Below, in pieces: positions 4,006 to 28,403 of a stretch of DNA of 28,978 nt (positions are counted from its first letter, which is position 1; the number at the start of each line of letters is the position of its first letter). The position numbers and the translations under genes were made by a program. The notes under the pieces are model-generated. The model was not told the DNA's origin. It saw only the letters and a program-made list of their open reading frames with translations, and ran no database searches. Origin of the DNA: a virus; UHGV virus genome UHGV-0201389. The stretch is one strand, 5' to 3'.

Positions 4006-6066
4006 ATGACAGCAAAAAAATTACGTCGTAGCGTTGCGGTAGATGCCCCTGATTTTATCGAAGAAAAAGACGAACGAATTATTGAATTGGCTTTCTCTAG
4101 CGAGGCTCCTTATACACGTTATTACATGAATCAGGACGGCGAGCAAGTCGAATTAAAAGAGATTCTCGTACACGATGAATCAGCGGTTGATCTATCCGTT
4201 TTAAACGAAACTAACGCAAGTCTTCTGTTTAATCACAATCTGGATCTTCATATCGGCAAGATTGTTCCTGGCTCCGCTCGTATCGATGAAGATCGTGTAG
4301 GCCGTTGTCTTGTTCAATTCTCCAAAGTAGGCCAACTGGCTAATGAATGCTTTGAGAAGGTAAAGGAATCCACATTATCACAGGTTAGCGTCGGTTATAA
4401 CGTTCTTGATGGTAAAGCCGATTTTAGCAAAGGGATCTATTACGTTACTCGCTGGCAACCATATGAAGTAAGCATTGTTACGTGTGCCGCAGATCCGTTT
4501 AATGCTGGTGTTGGACGCTCTCTAAATACAGACAACGAAATGATTGTTTTGGAGGGTGAACAAGTGGAAGACGAAATTAAAGAAGAAATTAAACCGGAAG
4601 ATGAAGAAAAACGTTCCGAAGAAGATAAAGAGGAACAGGAAAATGAAGAAATTGATTCCGATTCTGGAAATAGTGTTAACAGTGGCGAAGATGTGGAAAA
4701 CCCGCAAGAAGTAACGCCAGAAGAAAAAGAAAAACGTTCCGAAGATGAACCGGAAGAAGAAATTAAACCGGAAGAAACAGAAGAACTAAATAAAGATACA
4801 GACGAGAACGACGAAACGGTAGAAGAATCCGAGACAGTCGAAGAAGAAAAGATTGAAGACGAAGAAAAACCGTTTGAACGTTCTCGCGAAGATACCGCCG
4901 AAATTCGTGCTATCGGAAAACATCTAAATATTCCAGAAGCAACGATTGAAGCTGCAATTAAAGATAGTGCCGTGACTATTGAAAATTTTAAAGAAAAAGC
5001 ACGCGCACTAAATACTACCGAATCTAAAACTTTTGTTAAAGGAAAAATTACCATGACCGATACCATTAAAACTCTGGAATCTCGTTTCGATCTTAATAAA
5101 GCTGTACGTGCAATCGCAGAGGGTAAAGCACTGACTGGCGCAGAAGCTGAATATTCTCAGGAAGAAGCACGTAAAGCCGCAGCGCGTGGTCGTGCACAGC
5201 GTTCTAACTCCGTATTCATTCCGGCGTCCGCTCTGCGTGCTAGCCAGAACATGGAATCTCTGAAACCTGTAGTTGGTGAAGAAATCCGCCATGATTGCTT
5301 CGTTGATATGATCATGGAACGCTCGATTCTGGGTAAATTGGGTGTTCGTACCATTAACGCAACTGGTCCGGTATCTCTGCCGTCTCTGACTTCCAGCAAT
5401 CTGGAAAACTTCGGTTTTGTTGCAGAAGGTCAATCCGCTGGTGAAGGTACTATCAAGTTTGCAGCACAGCCGATGACTCTTAAGACATTCAATGGAATTG
5501 TTCCTGTAACTCGTCAGGCTGCTATCACTCTGCCTAACATCGGTGCTATCGTTGGTGAGCACATGCTGAAACACAGTGCTATCGCTCTGGAAAAAGCGAT
5601 CCTGTCCAATGCTGCTAACCCTAACGCTCGTGATGGCCTGACTAAGATCCTGACCGACGCTGGCAAAGTTAAACAGATTGATTGGACCTATGCCGAGTTC
5701 CTGAAACTGGTTGCTGAACTCACAGACAAAGGTTTTAACGAATCTGATCTGGCATTTGCTACTCGTGGTGTTGTTAAAGCTGAACTGGCAGCGCAACTCA
5801 AAGCAGCTAATGTTCCGGGCTTCCTGGTAGAAGGCGATAAACTGGTTAACCGTCCGATCTATGGCTCTGGTGTAGTTGCTCAGGATACCATGCTGTTTGG
5901 TGACTTTAGCTCCCTTGTTGTTGCAGACTTCGGATCGCTGGAACTTGATTGCGACGATACCACAGGTCGCGCGGCTGGCAACCTGTACTTCCGTGTATGG
6001 GCTGATCTGGATTGGGCTGTTATGGACCATAGCGCACTGACCGTAGTTCAGAAGAAAGGCGAATGA
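4006..6066 (+). CDS. Prohead protease - acidic scaffold-like linker - major capsid protein fusion (686 aa)
   Basis: N-terminal ~180 aa resemble HK97-type prohead protease; residues ~185-290 are an extremely Glu/Asp/Lys-rich low-complexity region; C-terminal ~350 aa look like an HK97-fold major capsid protein and use strong high-expression codon bias. No separate protease or scaffold gene between portal and capsid. Ends in TGA. Confidence 0.8.
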   Translation: MTAKKLRRSVAVDAPDFIEEKDERIIELAFSSEAPYTRYYMNQDGEQVELKEILVHDESAVDLSVLNETNASLLFNHNLDLHIGKIVPGSARIDEDRVGRCLVQFSKVGQLANECFEKVKESTLSQVSVGYNVLDGKADFSKGIYYVTRWQPYEVSIVTCAADPFNAGVGRSLNTDNEMIVLEGEQVEDEIKEEIKPEDEEKRSEEDKEEQENEEIDSDSGNSVNSGEDVENPQEVTPEEKEKRSEDEPEEEIKPEETEELNKDTDENDETVEESETVEEEKIEDEEKPFERSREDTAEIRAIGKHLNIPEATIEAAIKDSAVTIENFKEKARALNTTESKTFVKGKITMTDTIKTLESRFDLNKAVRAIAEGKALTGAEAEYSQEEARKAAARGRAQRSNSVFIPASALRASQNMESLKPVVGEEIRHDCFVDMIMERSILGKLGVRTINATGPVSLPSLTSSNLENFGFVAEGQSAGEGTIKFAAQPMTLKTFNGIVPVTRQAAITLPNIGAIVGEHMLKHSAIALEKAILSNAANPNARDGLTKILTDAGKVKQIDWTYAEFLKLVAELTDKGFNESDLAFATRGVVKAELAAQLKAANVPGFLVEGDKLVNRPIYGSGVVAQDTMLFGDFSSLVVADFGSLELDCDDTTGRAAGNLYFRVWADLDWAVMDHSALTVVQKKGE

Positions 6067-6264: not shown

Positions 6265-6555
6265 ATGAAATTAACTGATAGCCAGATTCGCAGGGCTTTA
6301 AAATTTGCAGAAGAATTTCAGAAAATAGACGGGACAATCATTAAAGCACATCACGAATTTTCACATGTAGATACTCCTGATGGTGGCGTTACCGAAAGTG
6401 AATATCTTATTTGTGCTCGTGGTGATTTAAAATCCGGTGATATTGTCATTATCGAAGGTGTACGTAATAAAGTTGGTTACATCAAAGATGACAGATCCGG
6501 CCTTATTGAAGCCTATATTACTGTAGTAGGGGGTAAACATGGCAAGTATGAATAA
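6265..6555 (+). CDS. Small head/neck-associated protein (96 aa), function unknown
   Basis: ORF with strong SD (AAAGGGGG) between capsid and tail genes; position suggests a head completion or head-tail joining role. Confidence 0.6.
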   Translation: MKLTDSQIRRALKFAEEFQKIDGTIIKAHHEFSHVDTPDGGVTESEYLICARGDLKSGDIVIIEGVRNKVGYIKDDRSGLIEAYITVVGGKHGKYE

Positions 6556-6961
6556 TATGCCTCGATTAGTTCTTAAACGCGCTTTCATGGACATTATTAC
6601 CGACCAGCTAGGGTTAGAGCTAAATGCTGAACATACGAAGCTAGCGAGCGATACAGACGCTACCGTTTGGATCGTTGAAATGAATGAAACGTTTACCCCG
6701 ATCCGTGGAAGTGGTAATGGGCAATTATCATCACTGAATATTGAATTTCAGGTCTTTTCTAGTCGTGGTGAAACAGCCGTTCATAAGGCAGTTTATGAGT
6801 TAATTAAAATTGATGCAACTAACCCGCGATTAATCGAAACAGGTATTCGTATCATGGATATTAACCCTGTAGCAAGTAACACTAGCTGGGAAGATGATTC
6901 CAGCGATGGTTATGTAGTCGCAACACTAACACTAAAAATTGACTATCAAGCGCGTTTTTAA
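6539..6961 (+). CDS. Putative head-tail connector / tail terminator-like protein (140 aa)
   Basis: ORF overlapping the previous gene by 17 nt, SD GGGGG upstream; size and position typical of neck proteins. Function is positional inference only. Confidence 0.55.
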   Translation: MASMNNMPRLVLKRAFMDIITDQLGLELNAEHTKLASDTDATVWIVEMNETFTPIRGSGNGQLSSLNIEFQVFSSRGETAVHKAVYELIKIDATNPRLIETGIRIMDINPVASNTSWEDDSSDGYVVATLTLKIDYQARF

Positions 6962-6970
6962 GGGGTAATA

Positions 6971-7804
6971 ATGAATATTACACATGATAACTTAGATATT
7001 TTTACTGGAAGCCATGTAGAAGTAAGTATTTCTAACCAGCTAGACAATCAGGTCGACTTTTTCGATCCTAGCTTTAGTGGTATGGAGAACATCGCAGCCT
7101 TTCCTACGCTGACAGAATCAACCGAGATCGAGACTTACGAAGAGTATGATCATGATGCTACTGGTAAGCTGGCTGGCTATCGCAAACTTGAACCGACTAC
7201 GCTCACAGTAAACCGAGTTCTTGACGACGAACATCAAGCAATGTTGATGAAAGCCGTAGAGGATAAAACACCTTTGCGCTTTAGAATGTTCTATGTCGTG
7301 AACTCTGGCTATAGTGCTGCTAACACTGGTTACTATGTCATTTATGATGCTTATGTCACTAGCCATAAAACTCGTGGCGGTGATAACAAAGCTGTAACTA
7401 TGGAATTCAAACTAGAACCAGATGGCGGGATTCTTGCAAGGGGTATTGCAACCGAAGGCCGGATCTTACGTCAGGGTGATTTTGGTCTGGGCGCTGGTGT
7501 AAATCCTTTCACCGGACCTATTGATAGTGAATCTCTGACAGGAAACCGCTTCGTAACCTACAAAGGAACGGCTAGCACTAACCCTTATGGTGCTGATACA
7601 TCGTTAATTCATCTTCAAGCTAATGAGCATGGCGCATGGCAATTAACGTGTAATACTTCCGGTGCTCCACGTTTGCGGGTACGAAATATTCAGGACAACG
7701 GAAAATCGGAATGGATTAAAGTCTATACAACAAATGAGAAGCCAACGCCAGCCGAAATTAATGCGGTTGCTAAGACTGATAGAATCGACTTCGGGGAATA
7801 CTGA
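6971..7804 (+). CDS. Structural protein of unknown function (277 aa)
   Basis: ORF with TAAGGGGTAATAATG initiation motif; ends in TGA but with only 3 open codons downstream; C-terminus has a KPTPAEINAV motif resembling the N-terminus of the next gene. Confidence 0.65.
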   Translation: MNITHDNLDIFTGSHVEVSISNQLDNQVDFFDPSFSGMENIAAFPTLTESTEIETYEEYDHDATGKLAGYRKLEPTTLTVNRVLDDEHQAMLMKAVEDKTPLRFRMFYVVNSGYSAANTGYYVIYDAYVTSHKTRGGDNKAVTMEFKLEPDGGILARGIATEGRILRQGDFGLGAGVNPFTGPIDSESLTGNRFVTYKGTASTNPYGADTSLIHLQANEHGAWQLTCNTSGAPRLRVRNIQDNGKSEWIKVYTTNEKPTPAEINAVAKTDRIDFGEY

Positions 7805-7877: not shown

Positions 7878-10800
7878 ATGCAATCAATCCAATTTAAACG
7901 CACACAGACGGCTGGTAAAAAGCCAACGCCGGAACAATTACAGGTCGGTGAAATCGCTATTCAGATGGCAGACCATGTAATTTATACCAAAGATAAAAAT
8001 AACGCAGTAGTTCAAGTAAGTGTTTCTCCTGAAAGCCATAATGCTTTAAACACGAAAGTAGACAATAACAAGAAAACTACTGATTCTACTATCGCGGCAA
8101 ATAAAACCGAAGCTGCTAACGCTCTGGCTACCGCTAAATCTGAACTGAATAACACCATTACCACGAAAGATACAGCAACCAATAAGCGCATTGATGCTAC
8201 TAACACCACTGTTAGTAACTTAACCCAGACAGTTACGGCAAATAAAACCGACGCTGACAGCAAACATACCACTTTAACTAACACTGTTGCGGCAAACAAA
8301 TCAGCTATTGAAACTACCGTAGCGAATAACAAACGAGATGCGGACAATAAAATCTCAGCTTTAACCACTACGGTTAATGACAATAACACCGCGATCAATA
8401 GCCGTGTTGATGCCACCAACACCAATGTTAGCAATCTGACCAAAACCGTTACAGCTAACAAGTCTGATGCTGATTCTAAGATCTCCAGCTTAACGAGTAC
8501 CGTTGCGGCTAACAAATCAGCCATTGAAACTACGGTAGCGAACAATAAACGCGACGCTGATACGAAGATCACCAACTTAACCAACACTGTTAATAGCAAC
8601 CACACCGCCATTAACGCGAAGGTAGACAAAAACAAGACCGATGCAGATGCAGCGATTGCAGCCGCTAACCGTCGAATTGATGGTATTGAAGGTAGTGCCG
8701 ATGCTGCTTACATCAAGAAGAATACCAATACCTATCATCATGGCTATCTGTTAAGCAAGACTGCTAACTACTTTGATGATACCGGTGCTCGTAACCTTGA
8801 TTATTTTGGTGCGTTTCGTCCGAACAATGCCGAAGGGTGGGGTAACTTAATCCTTAACATTCCTCATTCTGGCGGTAAAGCACACGGTCGCGGCTTTGAG
8901 TTCCATTATGGGTCTAGCTCATCTCAGGTTAAAACCTATGGCTTTGATGCTAACGGTGCTAAAAGATTCAGCTATCGCATGTATCACGAAGGTGATAAAC
9001 CTACACCATCGGAATTGAACGTTTACAGCAAACAAGAAGTTGATCGTATGTTTGTTAAAAACGTTAAAATGTCGGTTCCTTCTGGTGATGCAACTCGTGG
9101 ATATTTTAAGATTGCAACCGCAATGATTCCGCAGCAAGGCAGAATGGCATTTATTCGCATCTATGGTGGTAACGGTTATAACGTTAATTCTTACGATCAA
9201 GTTGACTTTCTTGAAATTGTTATCCGTAGCGGCAACGGAAACCCTAAAGGAGTTAGTATTGCTGCATATCGTCGAAATGCTAAAAATATTCATCAAGTAT
9301 TTGCGGTTAACACTTCCGGTGATAACTACGATATCTACGTTAACTACGGTCGTTATACTGATAACGTTATTGTCGAATATGGTAAAACTAACGATGTTAC
9401 ACTGACGGTACATGACGTTCCTGAAATAACTCTCGTTAAGCCGTCCACTGGTGTTACTGATGGTAAAGTAATTACCATGTTTAACACAGAGAACAAAGCC
9501 GGAACTATTCGTTTTGATGATAATACACAGGGAACTTACGATATTATCAGTTTGTGTAATGATACTGGTGATGGTAAAAAATATCTTCGTCAGTTCCGTA
9601 GTAAATCAGGTCATACTATTTGGCATGAAACTGTTCAGGGTAGCGTGTACCGCCTAGCTACTGGCACTACTGACTCAAACGAAGTTCTTAAAATTACCGA
9701 CCGCACGCTGCAAACTGGTCGTGCTGTTCTTGATGGTGGTAATATTCGTTTAGAACGCCAGACAGGGAATAGTAACCTTGTTGAATATTGGGATCGTCGT
9801 AACGGTGCTAACGTTCGTCAATCATGGTTTGGTTTTGGTAATGCCGACACTAACGCATTCCAGATCTATAGTGATGCTGGTAAAAACAACTTTGCGTTAG
9901 AACAAAGCGGTCAGATCTCTCTTAATGTTGGTGCAACAAAAATTGTCCATACCAACGGGCAATATATTTCAACTAACGCTGATGCATATCGTATGATTTA
10001 CGGTAATTACGGTGCATTCTGGCGAAATGATGGTGTTAAAACCTATCTTCTGTCTACCGCCGAAAATGATAAATGGGGTAGCTGGACTGGAAACCGTCCA
10101 TTCATTTATGAATTTAGTTCCGGTAACGTTAATTTAGGTGGTGATTCCAATAAATCCGCATTGACCTTAGAAGGTGCAAGCAAAGCCGCTCGATTTGGTG
10201 GTCATGTTTATACTGGCGGTAACTTACATAATACTGGACAGCATATAACGATGGAAGCCGGACTTGCTGGACAATCCCGCGATTTTATTCGCTTTAACCA
10301 TTGGGGTGATAGCAGTAACGGTCGTGATAACGTCCTGTATGTGGAAGATAGCAAAGGACGTCATTTCAGCACCGAGCGTAATATGGCTACTGGTGGATTG
10401 AAAGCAAACTTCTTAGGAGACTTTGAAGTTGGTGGTAAATTGACATGGGGTAAAGGTACAGCACAATCCTCGTTTAACTGTCGTGTTTGGGGTAATGCTG
10501 ATCGTAAACAGGTTTTAGAGTGGGCTGATGAAAGCGGTTGGCATTTCTATAGCCAGCGTGCAGGTGGTCCAGGAACTACAGCGATTCAGTTTAGTGTAAA
10601 TGGACAAATCAACGCACAAAACTTGAACGTTTCTGGTAAGGTTACTACCCCGCAAATTAGCGCATTTGGTGTAAACGTTGCTAATGGATTAGGTGGCAAC
10701 TCAATTGTTTTGGGTGATAGTGATACTGGCTTTAAGCAAAACGGCGACGGTATTTTAGATGTATATGCTAACAATGTGGCAGTAATGCGTTTTACTTCCG

Positions 10801-11156
10801 GTGCAATCACCGCAAACAAAGCAGTAAACGTAACTGGTCGAGTTACACCAACTGATTACGGTAACTTTGACGGTCGTTATATCAAAAAGACGAAAGGTTG
10901 TACTAAAATCTGGTCCGGTACTCTCCCTGGTAATACCCAGACCGGAGGTTTACCACAAGATCTCCGCTTCCGTAATGTGTGGATTCTTGACGCCGCAGGA
11001 TTTAACCATTTTATCCGTTTTGCCAATGACGGGAACTATTACCTGGCTGGTAACGGTGGATGGATTAAAATCCAACTTCACTCTAGCGGTAAAATCTTTA
11101 AGAACATTCAAGATTCTAACTTCGTTCCGCGTGAAATCTGGGTAGAAAACGAATAA
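7878..11156 (+). CDS. Tail fibre protein (1092 aa) with conserved fibre N-terminal motif and internal tandem repeats
   Basis: N-terminus KRTQTAGKKPTPEQLQVGEIA resembles the attachment motif seen at the start of many phage tail fibres; ~72-aa Thr/Asn/Ala-rich tandem repeats; Gly/Asn/Tyr-rich C-terminal half. Confidence 0.8.
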   Translation: MQSIQFKRTQTAGKKPTPEQLQVGEIAIQMADHVIYTKDKNNAVVQVSVSPESHNALNTKVDNNKKTTDSTIAANKTEAANALATAKSELNNTITTKDTATNKRIDATNTTVSNLTQTVTANKTDADSKHTTLTNTVAANKSAIETTVANNKRDADNKISALTTTVNDNNTAINSRVDATNTNVSNLTKTVTANKSDADSKISSLTSTVAANKSAIETTVANNKRDADTKITNLTNTVNSNHTAINAKVDKNKTDADAAIAAANRRIDGIEGSADAAYIKKNTNTYHHGYLLSKTANYFDDTGARNLDYFGAFRPNNAEGWGNLILNIPHSGGKAHGRGFEFHYGSSSSQVKTYGFDANGAKRFSYRMYHEGDKPTPSELNVYSKQEVDRMFVKNVKMSVPSGDATRGYFKIATAMIPQQGRMAFIRIYGGNGYNVNSYDQVDFLEIVIRSGNGNPKGVSIAAYRRNAKNIHQVFAVNTSGDNYDIYVNYGRYTDNVIVEYGKTNDVTLTVHDVPEITLVKPSTGVTDGKVITMFNTENKAGTIRFDDNTQGTYDIISLCNDTGDGKKYLRQFRSKSGHTIWHETVQGSVYRLATGTTDSNEVLKITDRTLQTGRAVLDGGNIRLERQTGNSNLVEYWDRRNGANVRQSWFGFGNADTNAFQIYSDAGKNNFALEQSGQISLNVGATKIVHTNGQYISTNADAYRMIYGNYGAFWRNDGVKTYLLSTAENDKWGSWTGNRPFIYEFSSGNVNLGGDSNKSALTLEGASKAARFGGHVYTGGNLHNTGQHITMEAGLAGQSRDFIRFNHWGDSSNGRDNVLYVEDSKGRHFSTERNMATGGLKANFLGDFEVGGKLTWGKGTAQSSFNCRVWGNADRKQVLEWADESGWHFYSQRAGGPGTTAIQFSVNGQINAQNLNVSGKVTTPQISAFGVNVANGLGGNSIVLGDSDTGFKQNGDGILDVYANNVAVMRFTSGAITANKAVNVTGRVTPTDYGNFDGRYIKKTKGCTKIWSGTLPGNTQTGGLPQDLRFRNVWILDAAGFNHFIRFANDGNYYLAGNGGWIKIQLHSSGKIFKNIQDSNFVPREIWVENE
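8187..8618 (+). repeat. Two tandem ~216-nt (72-aa) repeat units inside the tail fibre gene, with a degenerate partial copy upstream
   Basis: RIDATNTTVSNLTQTVTANKTDADSK...AANKSAIETTVANNKRDAD recurs as RVDATNTNVSNLTKTVTANKSDADSK...AANKSAIETTVANNKRDAD; nucleotide copies differ mostly at synonymous positions. Confidence 0.8.
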
Positions 11157-11229: not shown

Positions 11230-11706
11230 ATGTCTCAACAATTCAAAGATATTTTTACTGGTGGTCTGGTAAGTCTGTTCTATCACGCCGATACCACTAA
11301 CACCGCTCTCGATCATGAAAGCTATGAAGAAATTAAAGAGTGTGCTGGTTTCCCTGAAACTGGTATCGAGCGCGGTACTGTAGAAGTTAAATCCTTCTCT
11401 TCTCAGTATAACCGCAAGCTGGTAGGTAAACTGAACGTTCCTGATCTGACTCTGACCGTTAATTATATTCCCGGGGATACCGTGCATGAGCGTCTTATTA
11501 AGGCTGCCGAAGATGGTACCCGTATTCAGATTAAGATTGAATACTATGTTGACGCAGCAAAACAGACTGGTATTCGCACCGCTTTCAACGGCTTTATTTC
11601 TAAAGTTGCTATGCAGGGCGGCGATGAAGAAGTGGTAACTAAAGAATTTACCTTTGCTGTTGATGGTGCTCCGCTGAAACAGGAAATCTTCAATACTGCC
11701 GCTTGA
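11230..11706 (+). CDS. Major tail tube protein (158 aa)
   Basis: TAAGGGGTAATTATATG initiation motif, strong high-expression codon bias, sits directly upstream of the chaperone pair and tape measure gene. Ends in TGA. Confidence 0.75.
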   Translation: MSQQFKDIFTGGLVSLFYHADTTNTALDHESYEEIKECAGFPETGIERGTVEVKSFSSQYNRKLVGKLNVPDLTLTVNYIPGDTVHERLIKAAEDGTRIQIKIEYYVDAAKQTGIRTAFNGFISKVAMQGGDEEVVTKEFTFAVDGAPLKQEIFNTAA

Positions 11707-12638: not shown

Positions 12639-15146
12639 ATGTCAGAATTTAAAATTGGTATTACTGGTGTAACCAGTGGCCTAGAATCTGCCGCAAATAA
12701 AGCAAGCGGTATTCTTGATGGCCTTGCTTCCGGTGGCGTTGATGGCTTGACTAGTTCCGTAGGTGGATTGTTAGGCAAGCTGGGTCCATTGGGTATGGCT
12801 GCTGGTGCTGCTTTAGGTGCTCTTACTGCTTTAGCTGCTGGTGGCGCTAAAATGGCTGTTGAATATGCCAACATGTCGAGAGAATTTGGCGTTAATATTG
12901 AGCAAATCCAGAAGTTAGAAAAAGTTTATAGTGGTTTTGGTCTGAATGCCGAAAAAGTTCTTGATATTAACAAGGATGCAGCCGAGAAATTAGGGGAAGC
13001 ATGGCGAGACGGTACAGGGGAATTTCAAGCCGCTCTTAAAATGATTAAAGGTGATATTAAGGATTACGCGGCCTTTACCGACGATCCAGAAGGGGGTCGC
13101 AAAGCTGCTGAAATGTGGTACTACCAAGCGAAGGCCGCAGGATTAAGCCATTCTGAAATCATCGCGGGTATGGAACGTATTGCTTCCGATTCCAGTAAGA
13201 TGATCGGTGCTTTGTCTGAATCAAACGATTATTGGGAACATCAAGTTAAGCTACAACAAAAAGCCGCTTATGTCTCAGAGGAAACCGCTACCGCATATGC
13301 CGACGCGGGGTCTAAACTGACCGAGTTAGGGAAGACCATAATGGGTGCTTTCGCGGATTTATTTTCGTTCCTCCCGAAAGGATTCAACTTAATCTATGAT
13401 TATTTCACTAAAGATTTTGCGAATACTACTTTCTATTTGAGCATTAAGGCTATCAGCACGTTTATTGCTGAAAAACTGCCTCCTTTGTTCCAGAAAGCTA
13501 AGACCGCGTTAACGTCAGCCATTAACCCGATCATCAATACCATTAAAACCGTACAGGAAACGATGGTTAATCTTTACAATAAGATTGCCGAAATCATCGC
13601 TAAAGTACAGAACATGATCCGCAAGGGTGGTAAAACTATAGCTGGCTGGTTTGGTGCTGATGCCGACTTCCTGAATTTTGAAATCCCAGCATTGACTACC
13701 GATAACATCAAGAAAGGTGCTCAAGCGTTAGCCGATGGTATAGCCAGTGGAGTTAGTAACGGGACAGCAACCAGCTTTGATGAACTGGCAGAACAAGAAC
13801 GCAAGAAACAAGCGGCTGAACTCCAAGCGCAAGCGGACGAACTGAAACGGAAACAGGAAGAAGAGAACAAACGTAATGTTCAAGTTCTTTGCCCTATCTG
13901 TAAAAAAGGCGCACATAGTGCCGCAGATTGTCCAGAAGCCAAGAAACAGAAAGATGCAGCTAAGAAGGCCGCAGACGAAGCGAAGAAATTGCGTGAAAAG
14001 GCATACAAGGATTTAGAGGCAATCAATATTTCTTTGTATAGCTCCGTGCAAGCGTCTGTAGCTTCCTCGAATAAACAGATCGTAGAAAACCTTGCTAAGT
14101 TAGATAACGCTCTGAAACAGGGTATTATCACGCAAGAACAATACGAAGAAAAACGTCGTCAGCTTATTGATGCTAACGCGGAAAACTTCCGTAAATCTGT
14201 ATTAGGTGCTAATCCTTCCGATGCTCTCCAGATGTTAGCGGCATCACGTCAAATCTATGACCAGTCGGTTGCAGATCTTGAAATGATGTACAACAACAAA
14301 CTGATTAAGCAATCTGAATACTTACAGCGTAAAAAGGATTTAGAGGCTGCTTTCTCTGCTCGTACCGATGCGACTACCGGATTAGAAGGTATCAAATCTA
14401 ATGAGATGCTCAATTCTTACGGTAATCGTGATCAGACTATCGATGAGATGAAAGCCGTTGATGTCGAGAAGGCCAACACTGAATATTCAGAACATAAAGC
14501 CAAGATCGATAAGCTGCCTCAAGCTGAACAATTTAAGCAATTGCAAGCTCTCAATGAAGCGCACAATAAGAAAATGCGTGAAATTGACTTAAAATACAAT
14601 AACATGCGCTTGCAAGATACACAAAATATGTTCGGTGGATTTGGTGAAGCATTACAAGCATTTGGCTTAGAGAATAACGCTGTTACTAAGGGTATCTTTG
14701 CCGCTCAGAAAGGCGTGTCTATTGCACAAGGTTTGCTCAATGCTCATGAGGCCGCAACGGTAGCTATGGCTAAGTACCCAGGACCATTGGGTGTTGCTAT
14801 GGGTGCTGCAAGCTATGCGTCCGCAATTGCTCGTGTTGCTCAGATGAAATCAATCACCGTTGATGGTATGGCGCATGATGGTATTGATAACATCCCGCGT
14901 GAGGGTACATGGCTTTTGCAGAAAGGGGAACGAGTCGTTGATGATCGTACTAACGGTGATCTGAAAGACTTCCTATCTGCTCAAAAATCAGGCGGTAATA
15001 ACAACTCTCAGCCGATTGAAGTTAATGCGCCTTTGAACATTAACGGCAATGTCAATAGCTCCGACAAGATGGTCATGGATGCTATCAAACGTCATGCTAA
15101 GTTGGTTGCTCAGGCGGTGGAAGACGCACAGCGCCGTAAGATGTAA
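12639..15146 (+). CDS. Tail tape measure protein (835 aa)
   Basis: Long ORF after the chaperones; Gly/Ala-rich hydrophobic N-terminal segment, extended Ala/Lys/Glu-rich coiled-coil-like regions, Gly-rich hydrophobic segment near the C-terminus; SD AAGAGG upstream. Confidence 0.85.
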   Translation: MSEFKIGITGVTSGLESAANKASGILDGLASGGVDGLTSSVGGLLGKLGPLGMAAGAALGALTALAAGGAKMAVEYANMSREFGVNIEQIQKLEKVYSGFGLNAEKVLDINKDAAEKLGEAWRDGTGEFQAALKMIKGDIKDYAAFTDDPEGGRKAAEMWYYQAKAAGLSHSEIIAGMERIASDSSKMIGALSESNDYWEHQVKLQQKAAYVSEETATAYADAGSKLTELGKTIMGAFADLFSFLPKGFNLIYDYFTKDFANTTFYLSIKAISTFIAEKLPPLFQKAKTALTSAINPIINTIKTVQETMVNLYNKIAEIIAKVQNMIRKGGKTIAGWFGADADFLNFEIPALTTDNIKKGAQALADGIASGVSNGTATSFDELAEQERKKQAAELQAQADELKRKQEEENKRNVQVLCPICKKGAHSAADCPEAKKQKDAAKKAADEAKKLREKAYKDLEAINISLYSSVQASVASSNKQIVENLAKLDNALKQGIITQEQYEEKRRQLIDANAENFRKSVLGANPSDALQMLAASRQIYDQSVADLEMMYNNKLIKQSEYLQRKKDLEAAFSARTDATTGLEGIKSNEMLNSYGNRDQTIDEMKAVDVEKANTEYSEHKAKIDKLPQAEQFKQLQALNEAHNKKMREIDLKYNNMRLQDTQNMFGGFGEALQAFGLENNAVTKGIFAAQKGVSIAQGLLNAHEAATVAMAKYPGPLGVAMGAASYASAIARVAQMKSITVDGMAHDGIDNIPREGTWLLQKGERVVDDRTNGDLKDFLSAQKSGGNNNSQPIEVNAPLNINGNVNSSDKMVMDAIKRHAKLVAQAVEDAQRRKM

Positions 15147-16457: not shown

Positions 16458-16877
16458 ATGCTAAAAACTAGGCTTATCACTGATTACATCAATTCATTAA
16501 TAGGTCGGGAATTCGTTCAAGGTGAGAATGATTGCAATCTGATTGCATGTAAGATCATCGATATTCTCGCAGGGACCGACCTGTTTAATTCTCTATATCA
16601 AAAATATTCGACAAAAGAAGAAGGCTTGAAAATCTGCAAAGAATTAAGCGGATACACAAACATCCTTCAACCAATTAAAGAACATTTCAAATTAGTCACT
16701 GATGATTTACAGGACGGCGACTTACTGGTCACAGCCCACAAATTAGGAAACCGTAATTATTATTCCGTAGTTCCTCATTATTCCGGTTATGGCCTCGTTG
16801 AAGAAGATGGTATCTGGATGACCATTCCTGTTTCAGACATTGACTATGAACAAGTTTATAGATTCGGGGGTGAATAA
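16458..16877 (+). CDS. Tail tip assembly protein with NlpC/P60-like domain, gpK-like (139 aa); the listed ORF start at 16302 is rejected
   Basis: [12 protein letters not shown] Cys motif and downstream His residues consistent with an NlpC/P60 papain-like fold; SD GGAGG 8 nt before the ATG at 16458; stop overlaps the gpJ-like start (TAATG). Confidence 0.55.
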
Positions 16878-19800
16878 TGGGAATTGAAGTATTGGTAGGC
16901 GCGGTTATTGCTGGTGCGTCTGCTGGGATGGCTGCTGCTGCAACATTTTCTGTTATGACCGCAGTCGCTATCGGTATGGCTGCTGGTGCTATGACCTTGA
17001 TCGCTTCCACTGTAGGCGCACCAAAAACACCAAAAGTACAAAGCCCAGATAATGCGGTGACGCTAGGAACATCAAACGATCCTAAGACAGTATTACCCGT
17101 TCTTTTCGGTACTACCCGTACTGGTGCGATTTGCGTTTATAAGGCTATTTCTAAGAAAGAAAACAATAAGTTAGTTCAAATCTTCGCAATTGCAGAAGGT
17201 GAAATTGACCATTACAAAGCACTGTTTATCGATAATAAAAATGTTCTCGTTGGTAAGAACATGACGATCCGCGATGGTGTACTGGACAAGGGCAACATTA
17301 AAGAAGAATACCGGAAAGTATTAGAGGTTGAATTCCGCACTGGTAAGAATCCTAACACCGCCTTGTCACTGGCAAAAACTCACTTAGGCTCAGACTGGAC
17401 CGACGCTTACAAGGGTAACGGCATTGCTACCATGTGTATTGTTTTACGCCGTGATGATAAATCTCTTGCTGCTGGTGTTGATATTCTCCAGCCTAATAGC
17501 CAAGTGGCAGTCGATGTTATGGGCTTAAAAATTCGTAACCTTGAAACCAATGCTATTGAGGCCAGCACTAACGGCGTGGACCAGATTTTCCACTACCTAA
17601 CAAATGAAAAATATGGTCTTTCAGTACCAATTGAAAACATTAACGTTGATTCGTTCCTGAAAGTTCGCCAGCAAGTTCGCCAAATGGACCTACATTCAAA
17701 CGGTGCATGTGATCCGAACGCCAGCTTTAAAGAGAACTTAACTAGCCTTATGCAGACTTTCGGCGGGGTGATGTTCGAATCCTTCGGACGTATTACTCTG
17801 AAACTGGATGCTCCTGATATTGTTAAGCATGTATTCAATGAAGACAATATTATGATGGGTAAGGTATCGCTTAAGACTGGTGGCACTAACGGTTATTTCA
17901 ATACCATTAACGCGATGTATCAAGAACCATCAATTGACTATTCAGAGCAAATGCTACGTTATCCGGCTGATGCTGAAAATGATGCTACTATCCGCGAAGA
18001 TGGTCGAATTATTGCCAAAGATATTGAATATCGTTTTGTTAAGTCTAAAGACCAGATTGATAAACTTGCGAGCATTGAACGAAATAAATCTCGAATCACT
18101 CAGGTTATCAGCTTTATGACTACTGACGCATTCACTGCCGAAGTGTGGGACGTTATCAGCGTAACCTATGATGAATTAAAACTGAATAATTCCTTATGGC
18201 GTATTACTGCAATTGATCGCAGTATCGATTCTGGTATTGCTGGGATGATGACTATCACCGCCACAGAATATAATTCTCAGGTTTATACTGACCTGAACTA
18301 TGCGGCGAATCCAGACAATAGACCAACTGGTTTACCGGATTCAATGACAGTACAGAAGCCAACTAATTTCAGAATTAAGGCAACTGGTGAGACAATCCAC
18401 GGTAAAAACGTTACTTTGACATGGGATGCACCGGAAGACTTCAACCGTTACGGCTTCCAGATTGATTACAAAGTGAGTGGATCACCTAACTGGATTAAGC
18501 TGGGACAGACTTCACAGCAAATTTTCAATATCAATGCACTGGCAAAAGATCGTTCCTACGATTACCGCGTGTGTGCTTTCGGTATCATCGCCCGTTCTGA
18601 TTGGGTAGAACTGGTTAACCAGAATCCAGAAGTTACCTATGAACTACCTACGCCAGTGATCCGTATTAAAAATCAGGGTAGCACACCTGGTACTTTCGAA
18701 GGCAATGATCTGATTATTGAATGGGATAACCAGCAAAAATTAGATGTTGTTATCAACGGTGAAACTAACAAGTTTAGCGACCTGTTCGAAGCCTACATTA
18801 TCAAGGTAACTAACAAGGCTGGTAAGTCTATTCAGTACCGTACCCGCGATCCTGAATCGTGGACCTATACGCTTGATATGAACCAGTTTAACGGCCTTTC
18901 CCGTCAACTGACGGTAGAAGTATCCGCTAAGGGTTATAACAACTCTGTGAGCGCTCCAGCGCGTTTAGTGGCTATTAACCCACAGCATAAGCCAATGAAA
19001 GGATTTAGTGCGCGTGGTGGCTTTAATAGTGTGTTTGTTAGCTGGACCGATGACGTAGAACATGACTATGCAGGGTCAATCATTCAGTATGCAACCGACA
19101 ATACTTTCTCTGATGCAAGGGCGGTGACAACTAACAGCGTTAGCCATACTTCCTTTGATTTGGCTGATGGTGATTATTATATCCGTGGTGCTCACTACGA
19201 TATTTTCGGTATCGATGATGCTGTTTGGTCTGAACCTTATTACATGTCTATGCAATCTTCGATTAGTTGGGAAGATCAGGACAAAGAAGCACTGGAAGAC
19301 CTGATTGGTTTACAGGATCGCTTAGATGAAACTATCGCTGATGCTATTGCTCAAGCTGGCGCTAATGCTGATGCTAAAATCGATGCAATGCATAAGCAAA
19401 TCACCACCGAAACGGGTAAAACTGTTCAAGCCTCAGCCGATACCTTAAAGAGTCTGATTACTTCTGGTGATCAAGCCAGTGCAACTAAGATTGATCAGGT
19501 TAAAGCTGAACTAAAAGGCGATATCACGAAAGAGGTTAGCGCATCTGCTACTACCCTGAAACAAGCTATTGCAACCAGTGAGGCAGCAAGCGCAAGTAAG
19601 ATTGATCAAGTTCGGGTAGAAATGGACGGTAAGATTGCTGGCGTTAACCAGGAAGCAGATGTAAAAATCGATGCTTTGAAGGGAACCATTAACAGCAAAT
19701 ATAATCTGGCAGTTAATGCAGATGGTCGCGTGGCTGGTATTCACATGAGCGCAACCAACGATCCGGCACAACCGACGAGAATCATCTTTACGGCTGATAA

Positions 19801-20653
19801 AATCGCGGTAGCTCCACAATCTGGATCGGGTGTTTGCCCGTTTGGTATCGAAAATAACAAGGTTTATCTCGATAATGCCATGATTCGTAATGCTGCAATT
19901 GGCACAGCACAGATTAATGATGCGGCTATTACTACCGCTAAGATCGGCAATGCTGCAATTAACAGCGCGAAGATTCAGGACGGGGCAATCACTAACGCCA
20001 AGATCGTAAACGGTGCAATTGATAATGCCAAAATCGGTAACTATATCCAGTCTTCCAACTGGAACGGATCTACCGGATGGCATATTAACAAGAATGGTAG
20101 TGCTACGTTCATGAACGCCACCGTTAAAGGTAATATCACGGCTGATTCTGGTACTCTGAACAACGTCACGATTAACTCTAGCTGTGTTATTAAGGGTATG
20201 CTTGAAGCTACTCAGGTTAAGGGTGATTTCGTTAAGGTGATTGGTCGTAAGTTCCCGCACCGTGATGTTAACGTTGATAATGGTTATGCAGGTTATCCAC
20301 AGGGTACGGTCACTGTTCGCGTTGAAGATGATCATAACTTTGACCGTCAAATCGTTATTCCGGCAATTAGTTTTGGTGGATTGCGAGCGCGTGAAGGATC
20401 GAACGGTAATACGTTTTATGACACATGTCGCCTAATTGTTCGTAAGAATGGGTCAGAGTTGTATAATAGGGCGTATGGTGGCAATACTGGTCTTTACTCT
20501 GGTGTTATTGATATGCCGAGGGGTGGTGGTGCTGTAACTATCACGTTTGAAGTACAATCAAGCGCAATCAACAACTGGACACCGAGTACATGGATTAGTG
20601 ACTTAACGGTAATGGTAACTAAGAAAGCAACTACCGGTATTACTGTTTCTTAA
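16877..20653 (+). CDS. Central tail fibre / host specificity protein, lambda gpJ-like (1258 aa)
   Basis: Follows the gpK-like gene as in lambda; Gly/Ala-rich hydrophobic N-terminus; fibronectin-III-like segments; Ala-rich coiled-coil repeats; AKI-type short repeats; C-terminal ~150 aa ([12 protein letters not shown]...[13 protein letters not shown]...LTVMVTKK) resemble, from memory, the lambda J receptor-binding domain. Confidence 0.85.
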
Positions 20654-20671
20654 AATTTAATTTTAATAATA

Positions 20672-20713
20672 AATCCCGCTTAATACTTTGTAATTAGGCG
20701 GGATTATTTTTAT
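20672..20713 (+). terminator. Rho-independent terminator after the gpJ-like gene
   Basis: AATCCCGC...GCGGGATT stem with extended imperfect pairing, followed by TATTTTTAT. Confidence 0.75.
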
Positions 20714-20755
20714 CTAAATAATTCTGCCATTAAATTATAAAATATCGGGGGCGTA

Positions 20756-21034
20756 ATGACTGAAATTATATATGGCGGTATCGGTGTTATCGCCTTAATT
20801 TGTGGTGGGCTTTGGAGACTCCACCGAAATCAATTAGCCACAGAAAATAGGTTGTCTAAATTGGAATCCAGCGACGCATTGTTAAACCAGAAGTTTGAGA
20901 CGATGCAAAGTAACCATGACCAGATTGCCGAGAGAGTTTATCGAATGGAACAAACCCTGCACGGTATAGAAAAGAAAGTGGTTGCTATGGACGCCAAATT
21001 TGACCAAGTTATCGATTTACTCAAACAAAAATAA
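20756..21034 (+). CDS. Membrane-anchored coiled-coil protein (92 aa), possible lysis-associated (spanin/antiholin-like) or exclusion protein
   Basis: N-terminal hydrophobic helix (IIYGGIGVIALICGGLW) followed by a heptad-like charged region; SD GGGGG upstream; AT-rich codon usage distinct from the structural genes. Confidence 0.5.
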   Translation: MTEIIYGGIGVIALICGGLWRLHRNQLATENRLSKLESSDALLNQKFETMQSNHDQIAERVYRMEQTLHGIEKKVVAMDAKFDQVIDLLKQK

Positions 21035-21053
21035 TAATACTAAGGGTGAATAT

Positions 21054-21224
21054 ATGAAGAATAAACTTAAAAAATACTTTGGTTATCTCTTAATAATCGC
21101 CCTCACTTATAACGTAGCATTACGACCTCTGCTTACGTCCTTCGGGCTTAATCTTCCGGCTATGGCTGTGAATGATGAATTGCTTAGGACTATAGCGGGG
21201 GTCTTTTCGTTATTAGGGGGCTAA
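21054..21224 (+). CDS. Small membrane protein (56 aa), holin-like candidate
   Basis: ATG preceded by AAGGGTGA; basic N-terminus then hydrophobic segments (YFGYLLIIALTYNVAL, IAGVFSLLGG). The longer ORF from 20982 overlaps the upstream gene and lacks an RBS. Confidence 0.45.
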   Translation: MKNKLKKYFGYLLIIALTYNVALRPLLTSFGLNLPAMAVNDELLRTIAGVFSLLGG

Positions 21225-21225
21225 C

Positions 21226-21831
21226 ATGTCTAAACCGAAAATCTCATCCAACATTGATAAGGTGAAGAAAGACATCAAGGATTGGAAAAAGAAGGCTAGT
21301 AATAGTTTTCATAAAGATTTAGGTTTAGCGGTCATTGATGAGCGGGTAAAGTTACAGAAGAAAATCAATTCAAGGATAGATCGCCCGACCAAATTCACAC
21401 AGAAAGCGGTCAATTCATATAACCGTATTCGCTCCAGTGGTAAAACGTCTTTTCATAGCGTTTTTATCATGAACAATCAGGAAAAATACTTAAAATACTA
21501 CTTTGAAGGTGGTAGTAATATTGAGAAATTTGTTCCTGTAACCGATGACCGTACTAACCAATTTGGTAACATTCCACAACTCAAAAACGGTAAGAAAATA
21601 GGGAAGTATGTAACCACCAAATCTAAATCAGGTAAAATACTACTTCTCGATCCATCCGTTAAAGCAGGAATGAAAAACAAGAAAAAGCTAGGAAAGCGTC
21701 TTGTTGCGGTTTTGAAGACAACCGACCGTAGTAACATTATGGGGTCATGGAAAGAAAATGAAAATGAGATGAAAAAGAATATCCAGAAGAGAATGAAAAA
21801 ACACTTCATAGGTAAGATCAATTTCGTCTAA
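21226..21831 (+). CDS. Lys-rich basic hypothetical protein (201 aa)
   Basis: ORF with SD GGGGG; very Lys/Asn-rich; no recognisable catalytic motif. Confidence 0.6.
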   Translation: MSKPKISSNIDKVKKDIKDWKKKASNSFHKDLGLAVIDERVKLQKKINSRIDRPTKFTQKAVNSYNRIRSSGKTSFHSVFIMNNQEKYLKYYFEGGSNIEKFVPVTDDRTNQFGNIPQLKNGKKIGKYVTTKSKSGKILLLDPSVKAGMKNKKKLGKRLVAVLKTTDRSNIMGSWKENENEMKKNIQKRMKKHFIGKINFV

Positions 21832-21870
21832 TCCATAAATACCCTCATAGAAACTTTATGAGGGTATAAC

Positions 21871-22218
21871 ATGGCTAAAAATATTTTTACTGAATTCCCC
21901 ACTTATCCGGTCGATCAGCTCTCCGGTATTTTTATTAATGGCATTAGCCCAGAATCTATGACACATGATTTTGAGGCAAAGAGAGTACAACATAAACAAT
22001 TCAAGCAAATGATCCGCGATGATGGTAATGGGCTAGTGTTTTGTGTTGCGACACTCGCTAAACGTCCTAAGTATCGTTTTCGTGTAGGCCAAGAGATTGA
22101 CATTGATAATCCTTATAATTTCAACTGCTTAGGTGACACGCGAGCGGTTTGCTTAGGTACTGCTCCTTATTATATCAAGGGTATGCGCTTTATTGGATAT
22201 ATCTTCCAGTACCTTTAA
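21871..22218 (+). CDS. Hypothetical protein (115 aa)
   Basis: ORF with upstream GAGGG; no recognisable motifs; immediately upstream of the peptidase gene. Confidence 0.55.
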   Translation: MAKNIFTEFPTYPVDQLSGIFINGISPESMTHDFEAKRVQHKQFKQMIRDDGNGLVFCVATLAKRPKYRFRVGQEIDIDNPYNFNCLGDTRAVCLGTAPYYIKGMRFIGYIFQYL

Positions 22219-22229
22219 GGGGGTAATAT

Positions 22230-22583
22230 ATGTTAAGCAAATACTTTTCCCGCAAGGAATTCAAATGTAAATGCGGAAAATGTGATTATGATACTATCGA
22301 CGCTGAATTGCTGGTAGTTCTCGATGATGTTCGTGAACACTTCGGGAAACCAGTAATTATTAACAGTGGGAACCGTTGTCCGACTCATAACAAGAATGTA
22401 GGCGGGGCAACCAATAGCTATCACGTTCGAGGCCGTGCGGCTGACATTGTAATCAAGGGTGTCTCCCCTGATATTGTCCATGCTTATCTTGATGGGAAAT
22501 ATCCTACTCAATATGGTCTAGGCAAATATAAAACCTTTACGCATATTGATAGCAGGTCGAAAAAATCTAGATGGAATGGTTAA
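22230..22583 (+). CDS. Peptidoglycan peptidase, Peptidase_M15 (MepK/YcbK-like zinc hydrolase) - probable endolysin
   Basis: YFSRKEF...SGNRCPTHNKNVGGATNSYHVRGRAADI...HID matches the His/Asp/His zinc-binding pattern of M15-family cell-wall peptidases; TAAGGGGGTAATATATG initiation motif; followed by a strong terminator. Confidence 0.65.
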   Translation: MLSKYFSRKEFKCKCGKCDYDTIDAELLVVLDDVREHFGKPVIINSGNRCPTHNKNVGGATNSYHVRGRAADIVIKGVSPDIVHAYLDGKYPTQYGLGKYKTFTHIDSRSKKSRWNG

Positions 22584-22603: not shown

Positions 22604-22636
22604 AAAAAGCGCCTCACAATGGCGCTTTATTTTTAT
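22604..22636 (+). terminator. Rho-independent terminator after the peptidase gene
   Basis: Perfect 8-bp stem AAAGCGCC / GGCGCTTT, 7-nt loop, followed by TTTATTTTTAT. Confidence 0.85.
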
Positions 22637-22701
22637 CTGGCGCAAATTGACGATAGCGCCCGTGTCGCGCAGAGTACGAGAAATCAGAATTGAAAGTTGT
22701 T

Positions 22702-22857
22702 ATGGCGGCAGATGATGAGATTTTGCCACTTGACACAAAGATCGCTTATTATCAAATGGTAATGGATTTTGCTGGTCGTGCACTGGATATTGTTAAATCT
22801 CGTGGGTTTGCGATCAAGAATGCTATAGAATTGCGTATGTTGGAATCCGGTCGATAA
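22702..22857 (+). CDS. Small hypothetical protein (51 aa), uncertain
   Basis: Sub-60-aa ORF translated manually; weak RBS; lies between two terminators. Confidence 0.3.
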   Translation: MAADDEILPLDTKIAYYQMVMDFAGRALDIVKSRGFAIKNAIELRMLESGR

Positions 22858-28061: not shown

Positions 28062-28403
28062 TCAGTCTTTGAAGTCGATGGTCACGTTACCTTTAAGGGC
28101 AAGTTCCATTAAGCAACTGCGCTCATCCTTCATGCTCTTACACAATTTCATCCCATAAACGACGAGATTATCTTTCTCTTTCCAATATTTTTGTTTCTCT
28201 GCATAAACCTCGCTATATTCACTATCTTTGAGTGAGAGAGCATTTTCTAACTGGCTAATCTCCTGATTCAGATCCTTAATCTCAGCCTTAGTTGACCGGA
28301 TAGTCTCTTGATGTTGAGTATCGGAATAGTCATACCCACAAGCAAATCCACCAATGCCACCAACACACACAGAAACAATAATTGCGTAGATAGTCTTTTT
28401 CAT
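28062..28403 (-). CDS. Secreted or membrane-anchored coiled-coil protein (113 aa)
   Basis: N-terminal signal/anchor MKKTIYAIIVSVCVGGIGGFA with a possible cleavage or weak lipobox at FA-C; heptad-rich middle; two C-terminal Cys; SD AAGAGGA upstream. Confidence 0.6.
   Translation of the reverse strand: MKKTIYAIIVSVCVGGIGGFACGYDYSDTQHQETIRSTKAEIKDLNQEISQLENALSLKDSEYSEVYAEKQKYWKEKDNLVVYGMKLCKSMKDERSCLMELALKGNVTIDFKD

Follow-up and report, generated by a model that had tools for sequence, protein, structure and literature searches.

The 28,978-nucleotide virus genome UHGV-0201389 (referred to here as the window, with positions counted from its first letter) carries four small genes, ORF1–ORF4, at 20756–22218 between a tail-tip gene and the gene of an M15 peptidase endolysin. 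The question raised by this locus is whether these genes make up a variable accessory cassette, as an original prediction made from the sequence had proposed, or belong to a conserved block of late genes with roles in particle assembly and lysis. We conclude that ORF3 is very probably a tail completion protein (TCP) of the lambda gpZ / HK97 gp10 / SPP1 gp16.1 / 80alpha gp51 type. The explanation as a whole, in which ORF3 is a TCP, ORF1 and ORF2 are lysis-type proteins and all belong to a conserved five-gene late block, is in our judgement reasonably probable. The four ORFs were found exactly where they had been placed between the tail gene and the M15 peptidase gene, and the genes of this region are as follows (lengths in amino acids, aa):

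Tail-tip gene: 16877–20653, + strand, 1258 aa, the upstream neighbour of ORF1.
ORF1: 20756–21034, + strand, 92 aa, with one N-terminal transmembrane segment (approximately residues 1–20) followed by a 72-residue helical coiled coil.
ORF2: 21054–21224, + strand, 56 aa, a basic small membrane protein of the phrog_2024 family.
ORF3: 21226–21831, + strand, 201 aa, 20% Lys, pI 10.3, net charge +32.
ORF4: 21871–22218, + strand, 115 aa, directly 3' of ORF3.
M15 peptidase endolysin gene: 22230–22583, + strand, 117 aa (PF08291, E 3.7e-27; phrog_894 endolysin, E 5.7e-45).

ORF3 as a probable tail completion protein

A profile built from ORF3 and six homologues recovered 318 cluster representatives from a library of 1.8 billion proteins, nearly all of them 180–230 aa in length. 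When 38 members of this family were sampled, 22 matched phrog_1924, a 'minor tail protein' (best E 1.5e-51), seven matched phrog_27 and two phrog_5, both of which are 'tail completion or Neck1 protein' families (best E 1.7e-9), and seven matched Pfam PF06763 Minor_tail_Z, the lambda gpZ family (best E 1.5e-4). Phrog_1924 was also matched by eight of nine close ORF3 relatives and is the only match of the window ORF3 itself (E 2.7e-4), and lambda gpZ used as a phmmer query detected three family members (E 2e-5, 1e-4 and 1e-3 in a set of 204). It should be noted that the link between ORF3 and the curated TCP models is transitive and passes through these relatives. In public sources the family members are unnamed or hypothetical proteins with no Pfam domain, and phrog_1924 is labelled only as 'minor tail protein'.

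The fold and composition of ORF3 agree with these family links. It has the TCP arrangement, in which a long, bent helix at the N-terminus and a second helix at the C-terminus are separated by a loop carrying a beta-hairpin or beta domain. It has no signal peptide or membrane segment, and it is close to lambda gpZ in length and basic character (201 aa and net charge +32 for ORF3, 192 aa and +37 for gpZ), with alleles down to 31% identity keeping a net charge of +32 to +37. In the 80alpha neck structure (PDB 9mu2, chain P), gp51 is equated with gpZ, SPP1 gp16.1 and HK97 gp10, with gpZ having an extra beta domain at the apex relative to gp51. A single copy of gp51 lies in the neck lumen, where it is bound to the N-termini of three tape-measure chains, caps the DNA end and touches the head-tail connector. 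We regard the links of ORF3 to this family and fold as established and infer its location and contacts in the virion by analogy: a single, very basic ORF3 copy would occupy the neck lumen as in the solved 80alpha neck. The earlier suggestion that ORF3 is a candidate host-takeover or anti-defence protein is rejected in favour of this family and fold evidence and the allele evidence given below; PADLOC found nothing.

Covariation of ORF3 with the tape measure and neck genes

The proteins of the window were compared with those of four E. coli prophages. The two neck genes included in this comparison lie upstream of the tail tube genes and have an allele type that follows ORF3 divergence, and the N-terminal part of the tape measure is the ORF3 binding partner we propose. 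Percent identities are given below in the order L044, L045, L046 and L041:

ORF3: 89.6, 59.2, 31.2 and 30.8.
Tape measure (12639–15146, + strand): 85.6, 85.8, 38.1 and 37.8.
Neck 96-aa protein (two neck genes at 6265–6961, + strand): 94.8, 42.3, 43.3 and 45.4.
Neck 140-aa protein: 94.3, 49.6, 49.6 and 48.9.
ORF1: 96.7, 94.6, 96.7 and 94.6.
ORF2: 85.7, 83.9, 85.7 and 87.5.
ORF4: 89.6, 90.4, 85.2 and 100.0.
M15 endolysin: 93.2, 76.9, 95.7 and 98.3.
Tail tip: 90.2, 96.0, 88.5 and 85.6.

Within the block, no gene varies more among the E. coli prophages than ORF3. It is conserved where tape measure and neck genes both agree with those of the window, intermediate (59%) where the neck genes alone differ, and reduced to approximately 31% where both differ. 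This pattern is not followed by its direct neighbours (84–100% for ORF1, ORF2, ORF4 and the tail tip) or by the M15 endolysin (77–98%). The divergence of the tape measure is N-terminal, with the C-terminus conserved in all of the prophages, and the 6–14 kb of intervening DNA is conserved and was not co-inherited in the manner of ORF3, tape measure and neck genes. A blastn search of complete E. coli genomes found the window-type ORF3 in just two, RMDEC332 (88%) and STEC1575 (70%, partial), the N-terminal 1.2 kb of the window-type tape measure in exactly the same two, and the window-type neck genes in RMDEC332 only. The chance of obtaining the same pair if two of 55 genomes were drawn independently is 1/1485, a figure which is weakened by shared ancestry. 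This covariation provides indirect support for contact between ORF3 and both the tape-measure N-terminus and the connector.

Several observations weigh against our reading of ORF3. The window protein has no significant direct match to Pfam Minor_tail_Z or to any HK97-gp10 model; the hhalign comparison of the ORF3 family with the single gpZ sequence was not significant (E 0.011, probability 3.8%); and neither a search of PDB sequences with the family profile nor Foldseek against the PDB found anything. The covariation rests on only three allele classes, and common descent of mosaic blocks may still contribute to it. The position of the gene is also unusual. The canonical place of a TCP gene is in the neck cluster, flanked by head-tail joining and tail terminator genes and preceding the major tail protein gene. 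ORF3, unlike gpZ, HK97 gp10, SPP1 gp16.1 and 80alpha gp51, is encoded inside a lysis block downstream of the tail-tip gene and approximately 14 kb from the neck genes, and in our reading it has been displaced from its usual neck-cluster site to the last part of the late operon. Only two small genes, those of the 96-aa and 140-aa proteins, are found at the neck position in the window, and neither product has a family match in Pfam or PHROG searches. Finally, the ORF3 homologues of distant phages are encoded just upstream of the small terminase gene, where lysis genes often lie.

We note that in these distant phages, which include Burkholderia, Roseomonas, Poseidonocella and metagenomic phages and some myoviruses with a lambda-type terminase and portal, the ORF3-family gene is found alone at this site (L008 9001–9624, L010 9001–9597, L039 9001–9618 and L040 9001–9618). 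It overlaps a conserved ORF of 100 aa in two of these phages. Their canonical neck position is additionally occupied by a 208-aa gene, so that some of them may encode two completion-type proteins.

Conservation of the block in E. coli prophages and distant elements

We found no close relative among GenBank phages, where megablast of the region gave only a 39-nt match downstream of the block. The block proteins are instead identical or near-identical to chromosomal proteins of E. coli and Shigella, and megablast located the block in 55 of 5,426 complete E. coli genomes (approximately 1%), in the chromosome every time. The related prophage of FDAARGOS_1267 is approximately 37 kb in length, splits ycdX and carries a large serine recombinase, and we read the window as that of a ~37-kb temperate E. 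coli siphophage with an RcGTA/HK97-like tail module whose relatives are integrated in ycdX. The structural module identified in this prophage and the window by Pfam and PHROG searches consists of a capsid–protease fusion, tail tube proteins, G/T-type chaperones, tape measure, distal tail protein, DUF2163, DUF6950 and Phage_Tail_Tip proteins and a fibre gene (a head spike fibre in relatives).

The order ORF1–ORF2–ORF3–ORF4–M15 is identical in every E. coli relative inspected. Across 29 related loci the frames of ORF1, ORF2, ORF4 and M15 are unbroken, and the ratios of nonsynonymous to synonymous substitution rates (dN/dS) against the window are 0.04–0.20 for ORF1, 0.20–0.25 for ORF2, 0.05–0.08 for ORF4 and 0.03–0.10 for M15. 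Judged by their sequence conservation, all four ORFs are real genes with a dN/dS range like that of the endolysin.

Beyond E. coli, the synteny of the block spans Salmonella and Providencia, and counterparts of all four genes adjoin the tail-tip gene in three more distant elements, Escherichia phage DCP80 (the portal of which shares approximately 37% identity with that of the window), a Yersinia kristensenii prophage and a Pantoea element. In DCP80 the order is a 153-aa transmembrane and coiled-coil protein (the ORF1 analogue at L001 7802–8263, unannotated in PQ671644.1), an endonuclease VII insert, a 57-aa membrane protein, the ORF3 and ORF4 homologues and a GH24-type lysozyme. In Y. kristensenii it is an 88-aa transmembrane and coiled-coil protein, a lysozyme, a GIY-YIG insert, ORF3, ORF4 and a 101-aa ORF2 homologue, and in Pantoea it is a 105-aa transmembrane and coiled-coil protein, endonuclease VII, a 57-aa ORF2 and the ORF3 and ORF4 homologues, with no adjacent endolysin. 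We give little weight to the gene order of the Pantoea element, which is probably rearranged or decaying. A tblastn search of phages with the four proteins found only DCP80 and weak matches in a Ralstonia record that is unannotated and has an uninformative, GC-rich ORF map. Among the distant relatives the endolysin type switches or its gene moves, and the homing endonucleases vary. The four genes remain together throughout this and therefore do not form a variable accessory region, as the original prediction had supposed. Homology to structural or lysis proteins with defined roles, which that prediction said should not be clear for all four genes, is firm for one of them, weak for two and lacking for ORF4.

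Some features of these elements are recorded here in their own right. The Pantoea sp. MBLJ3 prophage (L038) has a scrambled order of tube, DUF6950, tail tip, four-gene block, chaperones G/T and tape measure, with the distal tail and DUF2163 genes missing from the expected place. Endonuclease VII lies at the same ORF1/ORF2 junction in DCP80 (L001 8289–8756) and Pantoea (L038 6371–6853), and a GIY-YIG (SegE-like) gene lies inside the block of the Yersinia relative (L007 1574–2005); such homing-endonuclease-type genes inside the block suggest a recurrent insertion site. The DCP80 record (PQ671644.1) is classified as a 141-kb member of the Straboviridae (T4-like) with motA and also has a complete siphovirus-type portal-to-tail-tip module related to that of this prophage, so that either the record was assembled as a chimera or the genome is remarkably mosaic.

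The base composition of the four-gene region had been taken as a sharp shift in both codon usage and composition. The drop in GC content, from about 0.43 to 0.38, is real and modest (37.7% compared with a window mean of 41.8%, placing the region in the lowest 4% of same-sized windows), but the codon shift is not seen. The GC content at third codon positions (GC3) of ORF1–ORF4 is 0.43, 0.42, 0.41 and 0.35, respectively, inside the range of 0.25–0.48 spanned by the other genes of the window, and the deficit sits in the first and second codon positions of ORF3 (GC1 0.36, GC2 0.29) and in AT-rich intergenic DNA. The four-gene region therefore gives no evidence that codon usage shifts and no sign of a (recent) foreign origin, and the mild AT-richness is a genuine effect of the Lys-rich amino-acid composition.

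A terminator-bounded late unit

A hairpin scan of the region and inspection of the spacers identified the following structures:

Terminator-like hairpin: 20672–20715, + strand, a 13-pair stem (20672–20705) and T run after the tail-tip gene.
Stem-loop: 21838–21868, + strand, between ORF3 and ORF4, with no T run.
Bidirectional terminator-like hairpin: 22606–22638 (stem 22606–22628), both strands, after the endolysin gene and closing the five-gene unit.

The first of these is a strong hairpin and bears out the terminator that had been noted after the tail-tip (gpJ) gene. A promoter scan found no sigma-70-like site on the + strand between it and ORF1. Because of the hairpins on both sides and the missing promoter-like site, ORF1–ORF2–ORF3–ORF4–M15 look like one terminator-bounded late unit, with the 20672–20715 hairpin as its upstream edge. 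Each of ORF1–ORF4 is preceded by a good Shine-Dalgarno sequence, and the gap between the ORF2 stop codon and the start of ORF3 is 1 nt. The observation that the four proteins have no recognisable enzymatic motifs also holds, as Pfam, PHROGs and PADLOC gave neither an enzyme nor a defence match.

ORF1 and ORF2 as candidate lysis proteins

The M15 endolysin has no N-terminal hydrophobic segment and no signal or signal-anchor-release (SAR) sequence, and therefore needs a holin-type function in order to leave the cytoplasm. ORF1 and ORF2 are the sole small membrane proteins among the plausible genes of the window's late operon. Because they also share a terminator-bounded unit with this signal-less endolysin, we infer that a lysis role at the inner membrane is the best reading for both. 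ORF2 would be a cut-down holin and ORF1 its membrane-tethered cytoplasmic partner (releasin- or holin-regulator-like), and the pair would give the endolysin access to the cell wall.

ORF2 has a hydrophobic segment at residues 8–28 and a short hydrophobic C-terminus, and lacks cysteine. Its relatives match phrog_2024, a family of 65-aa phage proteins, with increasing strength (E 0.011 for the close L002 allele which is 88% identical, 4e-4 for the DCP80 protein and 2.6e-8 for the Yersinia protein). The sole Pfam match of the 101-aa Yersinia homologue is to PF11351 (GTA_holin_3TM; E 0.2, 12.6 bits against a cut-off of 24.8), and it also matches phrog_3427 'holin' (E 0.018). A tblastn search with this homologue returned weak matches only (E of at least 0.04), one in a T4-like phage with an uninformative context, and another that led to a 143-aa "holin" beside a lysozyme in an uncultured podovirus (L043), which is a true PF11351 member (E 2.5e-19). 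The Yersinia homologue and the L043 holin share 40% identity over 52 aa of the transmembrane core (BLASTP E 9e-9 in a single comparison), and hhalign of the ORF2 family profile against the same holin gave E 6e-4 at a probability of 28%. The relatives of ORF2 and the L043 holin appear to share the core motif aromatic-N/Q-F-V..P-L-L ... P.P-L-D ... G-x-L-G, which looks specific, and the ORF2 gene lies in the endolysin unit of a phage with an RcGTA-like structural module. ORF2 differs from these holins in having 56 aa rather than ~120–140 aa, one clear and one short hydrophobic segment rather than three transmembrane segments, and no equivalent of their N-terminal region; it also falls below the GTA_holin_3TM gathering threshold. 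Given the need of the endolysin for a holin-type function and the RcGTA-like structural genes, our best reading, at about even odds, is that ORF2 represents a miniature GTA-type holin, akin to such holins in its transmembrane core.

The coiled-coil domain of ORF1 has hydrophobic residues at 15 of 20 heptad a/d positions. In all four lineages there are 0–1 K+R on the N-terminal side of the transmembrane segment and 3–5 in the 15 residues that follow it. Because of these positive charges on the C-terminal flank (the positive-inside rule), ORF1 is predicted to be N-out/C-in with the coiled coil in the cytoplasm. Such an arrangement is known from the Mu gp25 releasin, a 99-aa type I protein with N-out/C-in topology, four periplasmic residues, a 73-aa cytoplasmic domain and membership of DUF2730 (PF10805), a family which also occurs with cytoplasmic endolysins. 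ORF1 resembles gp25 in size (92 and 99 aa, respectively), predicted topology, few periplasmic residues, a helical domain of approximately 70 residues and a nearby endolysin, and differs in having no significant sequence relationship, no SAR-anchored endolysin to release and a phage background that is not Mu-like. By this analogy, ORF1 appears to be built like a releasin or holin-accessory protein, and we do not claim DUF2730 membership for it. That assignment was considered and set aside, as neither ORF1, which had only coiled-coil matches in Pfam and PHROGs and none to PF10805, nor its Pantoea analogue (E 0.0034, 17.9 bits against a cut-off of 24.9) reaches the PF10805 gathering threshold.

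There are also points that count against a lysis role for the two proteins. The window ORF2 has no PHROG match at E ≤ 0.01 and no Pfam match at E ≤ 1, the best Pfam match of any ORF2 analogue is at E 0.2, and the chain leading from ORF2 to PF11351 is a weak one which passes through hydrophobic segments where score inflation is possible. The linkage of ORF2 to the endolysin is present in the window and is not constant in the Yersinia and Pantoea relatives. All of the ORF1 similarities are sub-threshold and coiled-coil-like (hhalign of ORF1 against Mu gp25 gave E 0.0067 and a probability of 5.7%), and no component that would disrupt the outer membrane was identified. An alternative holin candidate is a 94-aa protein, predicted to have three transmembrane segments in a class-I-holin-like topology, which is encoded at the far end of the related prophage and outside the window (L041 46150–46434). 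The RefSeq annotation of the complete FDAARGOS_1267 prophage names neither a holin nor a spanin anywhere. It is on this balance that we keep one part of the earlier proposal of holin, antiholin or spanin roles for the first two ORFs, a lysis role at the inner membrane, which is favoured by the alignment of ORF2 relatives with PF11351 and the gp25-like architecture of ORF1, and drop the spanin part in view of the predicted N-out/C-in topology of ORF1 and the missing lipoprotein partner.

A further protein that combines an N-terminal hydrophobic segment with a coiled coil, as ORF1 does, is encoded beside the serine recombinase gene (28062–28403, − strand, 113 aa). In some relatives other genes stand in its place; the protein is a possible moron, or else a second factor for lysis or exclusion.

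ORF4 and the ORF3–ORF4 stem-loop

No homology between ORF4 and anything characterised was detected using Pfam, PHROGs and profile searches; an ORF4-family profile search of PDB sequences found nothing meaningful, and scanning IMG/VR and GTDB genomes with the ORF4 alignment returned only close relatives or a single fragment. Structural modelling suggests a small beta-barrel for ORF4, with an N-terminal arm that is highly conserved and poorly modelled. The gene directly follows ORF3 in every case, in an order and with sizes that mirror those of lambda Z–U. On account of this order, and because only two genes are found at the neck position, our guess is that ORF4 is a missing neck or tail-end (virion or assembly) component. 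A displaced Z–U pair of completion and terminator proteins is attractive by size and order but is unsupported as far as ORF4 is concerned, since hhalign found no significant relation between the ORF4 family and gpU. As ORF4 shows no covariation with the ORF3 alleles, it does not read out the variable surface of ORF3. The takeover or anti-defence role in a variable region that had been proposed for ORF4 is unsupported: this is a strongly conserved partner of ORF3 (dN/dS 0.05–0.08) and not a variable moron.

The stem-loop between the two genes has a folding energy of −19.2 kcal/mol (z −5.4), and none of 200 shuffled sequences folded as well. Its 3' arm contains the ORF4 Shine-Dalgarno sequence. 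The structure is kept in the E. coli relatives, where a U-A to U-G change preserves the pair, and the ORF3 allele-replacement block has its right-hand (downstream) boundary here. Possible functions of the stem-loop are a damping of ORF4 translation or stabilisation of the mRNA.

Alternative explanations

The locus could be read in other ways. If it were a horizontally acquired AT-rich accessory cassette encoding host-takeover or anti-defence proteins (ORF3 and ORF4), its position after a terminator, its low GC content, the variability of ORF3 among E. coli prophages and the missing homology of ORF4 would all be accounted for. We consider this most improbable, since GC3 is unchanged, synteny extends across E. 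coli, Salmonella, Providencia, Yersinia, Pantoea and DCP80, PADLOC is silent while ORF3 has a TCP fold and family links, ORF3 variability follows the tape-measure and neck alleles rather than host or defence context, and ORF4 is under strong purifying selection and varies with nothing. A five-gene lysis cassette in which the cationic ORF3, with ORF4, replaces the missing spanins through a disruptin-like disruption of the outer membrane is very improbable. It draws on the failure to find a spanin or lipoprotein candidate in the window or related prophage, on the net charge of ORF3, on the placing of the block next to the endolysin in the window and DCP80 (with the endolysin inside the block in Yersinia), and on the terminase-proximal homologues in what is often lysis-gene territory. 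However, ORF3 has no signal peptide or membrane segment with which to reach the periplasm, gpZ is equally cationic and is a virion assembly protein, and the fold match is to TCPs. There is also no reason for a lysis protein to covary with the tape measure and neck genes, and the Pantoea element retains the block with no adjacent endolysin.

Other readings concern the two membrane proteins. ORF1 shares an N-terminal anchor and coiled coil with lambda Rz, the i-spanin plan, and its Yersinia and DCP80 analogues weakly match phrog_739 'Rz-like spanin' (E 0.001–0.003) with the transmembrane segment included, so that ORF1 might resemble an i-spanin or a unimolecular spanin and have its coiled coil in the periplasm, leaving ORF2 as the sole holin. 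This is quite improbable: a two-component spanin combines an N-in/C-out i-spanin with a lipobox partner such as Rz1, but the positive-inside rule predicts the opposite topology for ORF1 in all four lineages. No plausible lipobox ORF is embedded in, overlapping or near the block, ORF2 has no cysteine, and the phrog_739 matches are within the range expected from coiled-coil bias. It is unlikely that ORF1 and/or ORF2 are prophage-expressed membrane morons, for example acting on DNA entry in superinfection exclusion, for which HK97 gp15 and Cor are the comparisons. Their location after a strong terminator and directly downstream of the receptor-binding tail-tip gene would suit such a role, as would small inner-membrane proteins with no significant homology to characterised holins and the way ORF2 stays by ORF3–ORF4, and not the endolysin, in Yersinia and Pantoea. 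Against it are the missing + strand promoter-like site between terminator and ORF1, the 1 nt between ORF2 and the late structural gene ORF3, the keeping of ORF1 and ORF2 with the block under purifying selection over deep divergence, and the need of a cytoplasmic endolysin for a holin, for which these are the sole candidates in the window's late operon. We think it rather unlikely that the four genes are a functional module, and more than a relic of gene order, in which the TCP and ORF4 are co-transcribed and translationally coupled with holin-type proteins, timing particle completion with lysis. On this view ORF4 would represent a novel kind of neck/tail or lysis component and might supply the neck protein or the factor disrupting the outer membrane that seems to be missing from this lineage.

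Other features of the window

Two tail-tube-like paralogues that both match phrog_158 (6971–7804, 277 aa, and 11230–11706, 158 aa) enclose a 1092-aa fibre gene in the middle of the tail gene row (7878–11156), which in relatives varies strongly and is annotated with a 'phage head spike fiber domain' and a 'tail fiber domain'; instead of belonging to the tube, the 277-aa paralogue might form the base of a fibre or spike. The product of 4006–6066 (686 aa; phrog_617, phrog_4523 and phrog_80) joins a protease-like N-terminal region and the major capsid protein through a very acidic Glu-rich linker. Downstream of the block, a 55-aa ORF (22690–22857) is annotated as 'recombination mediator protein UvsY' in one relative, and just before it 39 nt (22662–22700) are 100% identical to the T4-like phages PHB13 and 011D4.

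Significance

The outcome of this analysis is a corrected over-interpretation and a sharpened annotation rather than anything revolutionary. ORF3 is a new, unusually placed member among the known TCPs, and through it a family of 318 representatives of approximately 200 aa with no Pfam model gains a name and a testable mechanism. Its position indicates that TCP genes can sit outside the neck cluster, where synteny-based annotation misses them. The natural covariation of a TCP with the tape measure and neck genes is a useful by-product, as the alleles of a Gram-negative siphophage here lend independent genetic support to contacts that were first observed in the 80alpha neck. The prophage lineage itself, found in approximately 1% of complete E. 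coli genomes, combines a cytoplasmic M15 endolysin and no recognisable spanin with two unusual small membrane proteins, and carries in ORF4 a strongly conserved protein with no known relatives.

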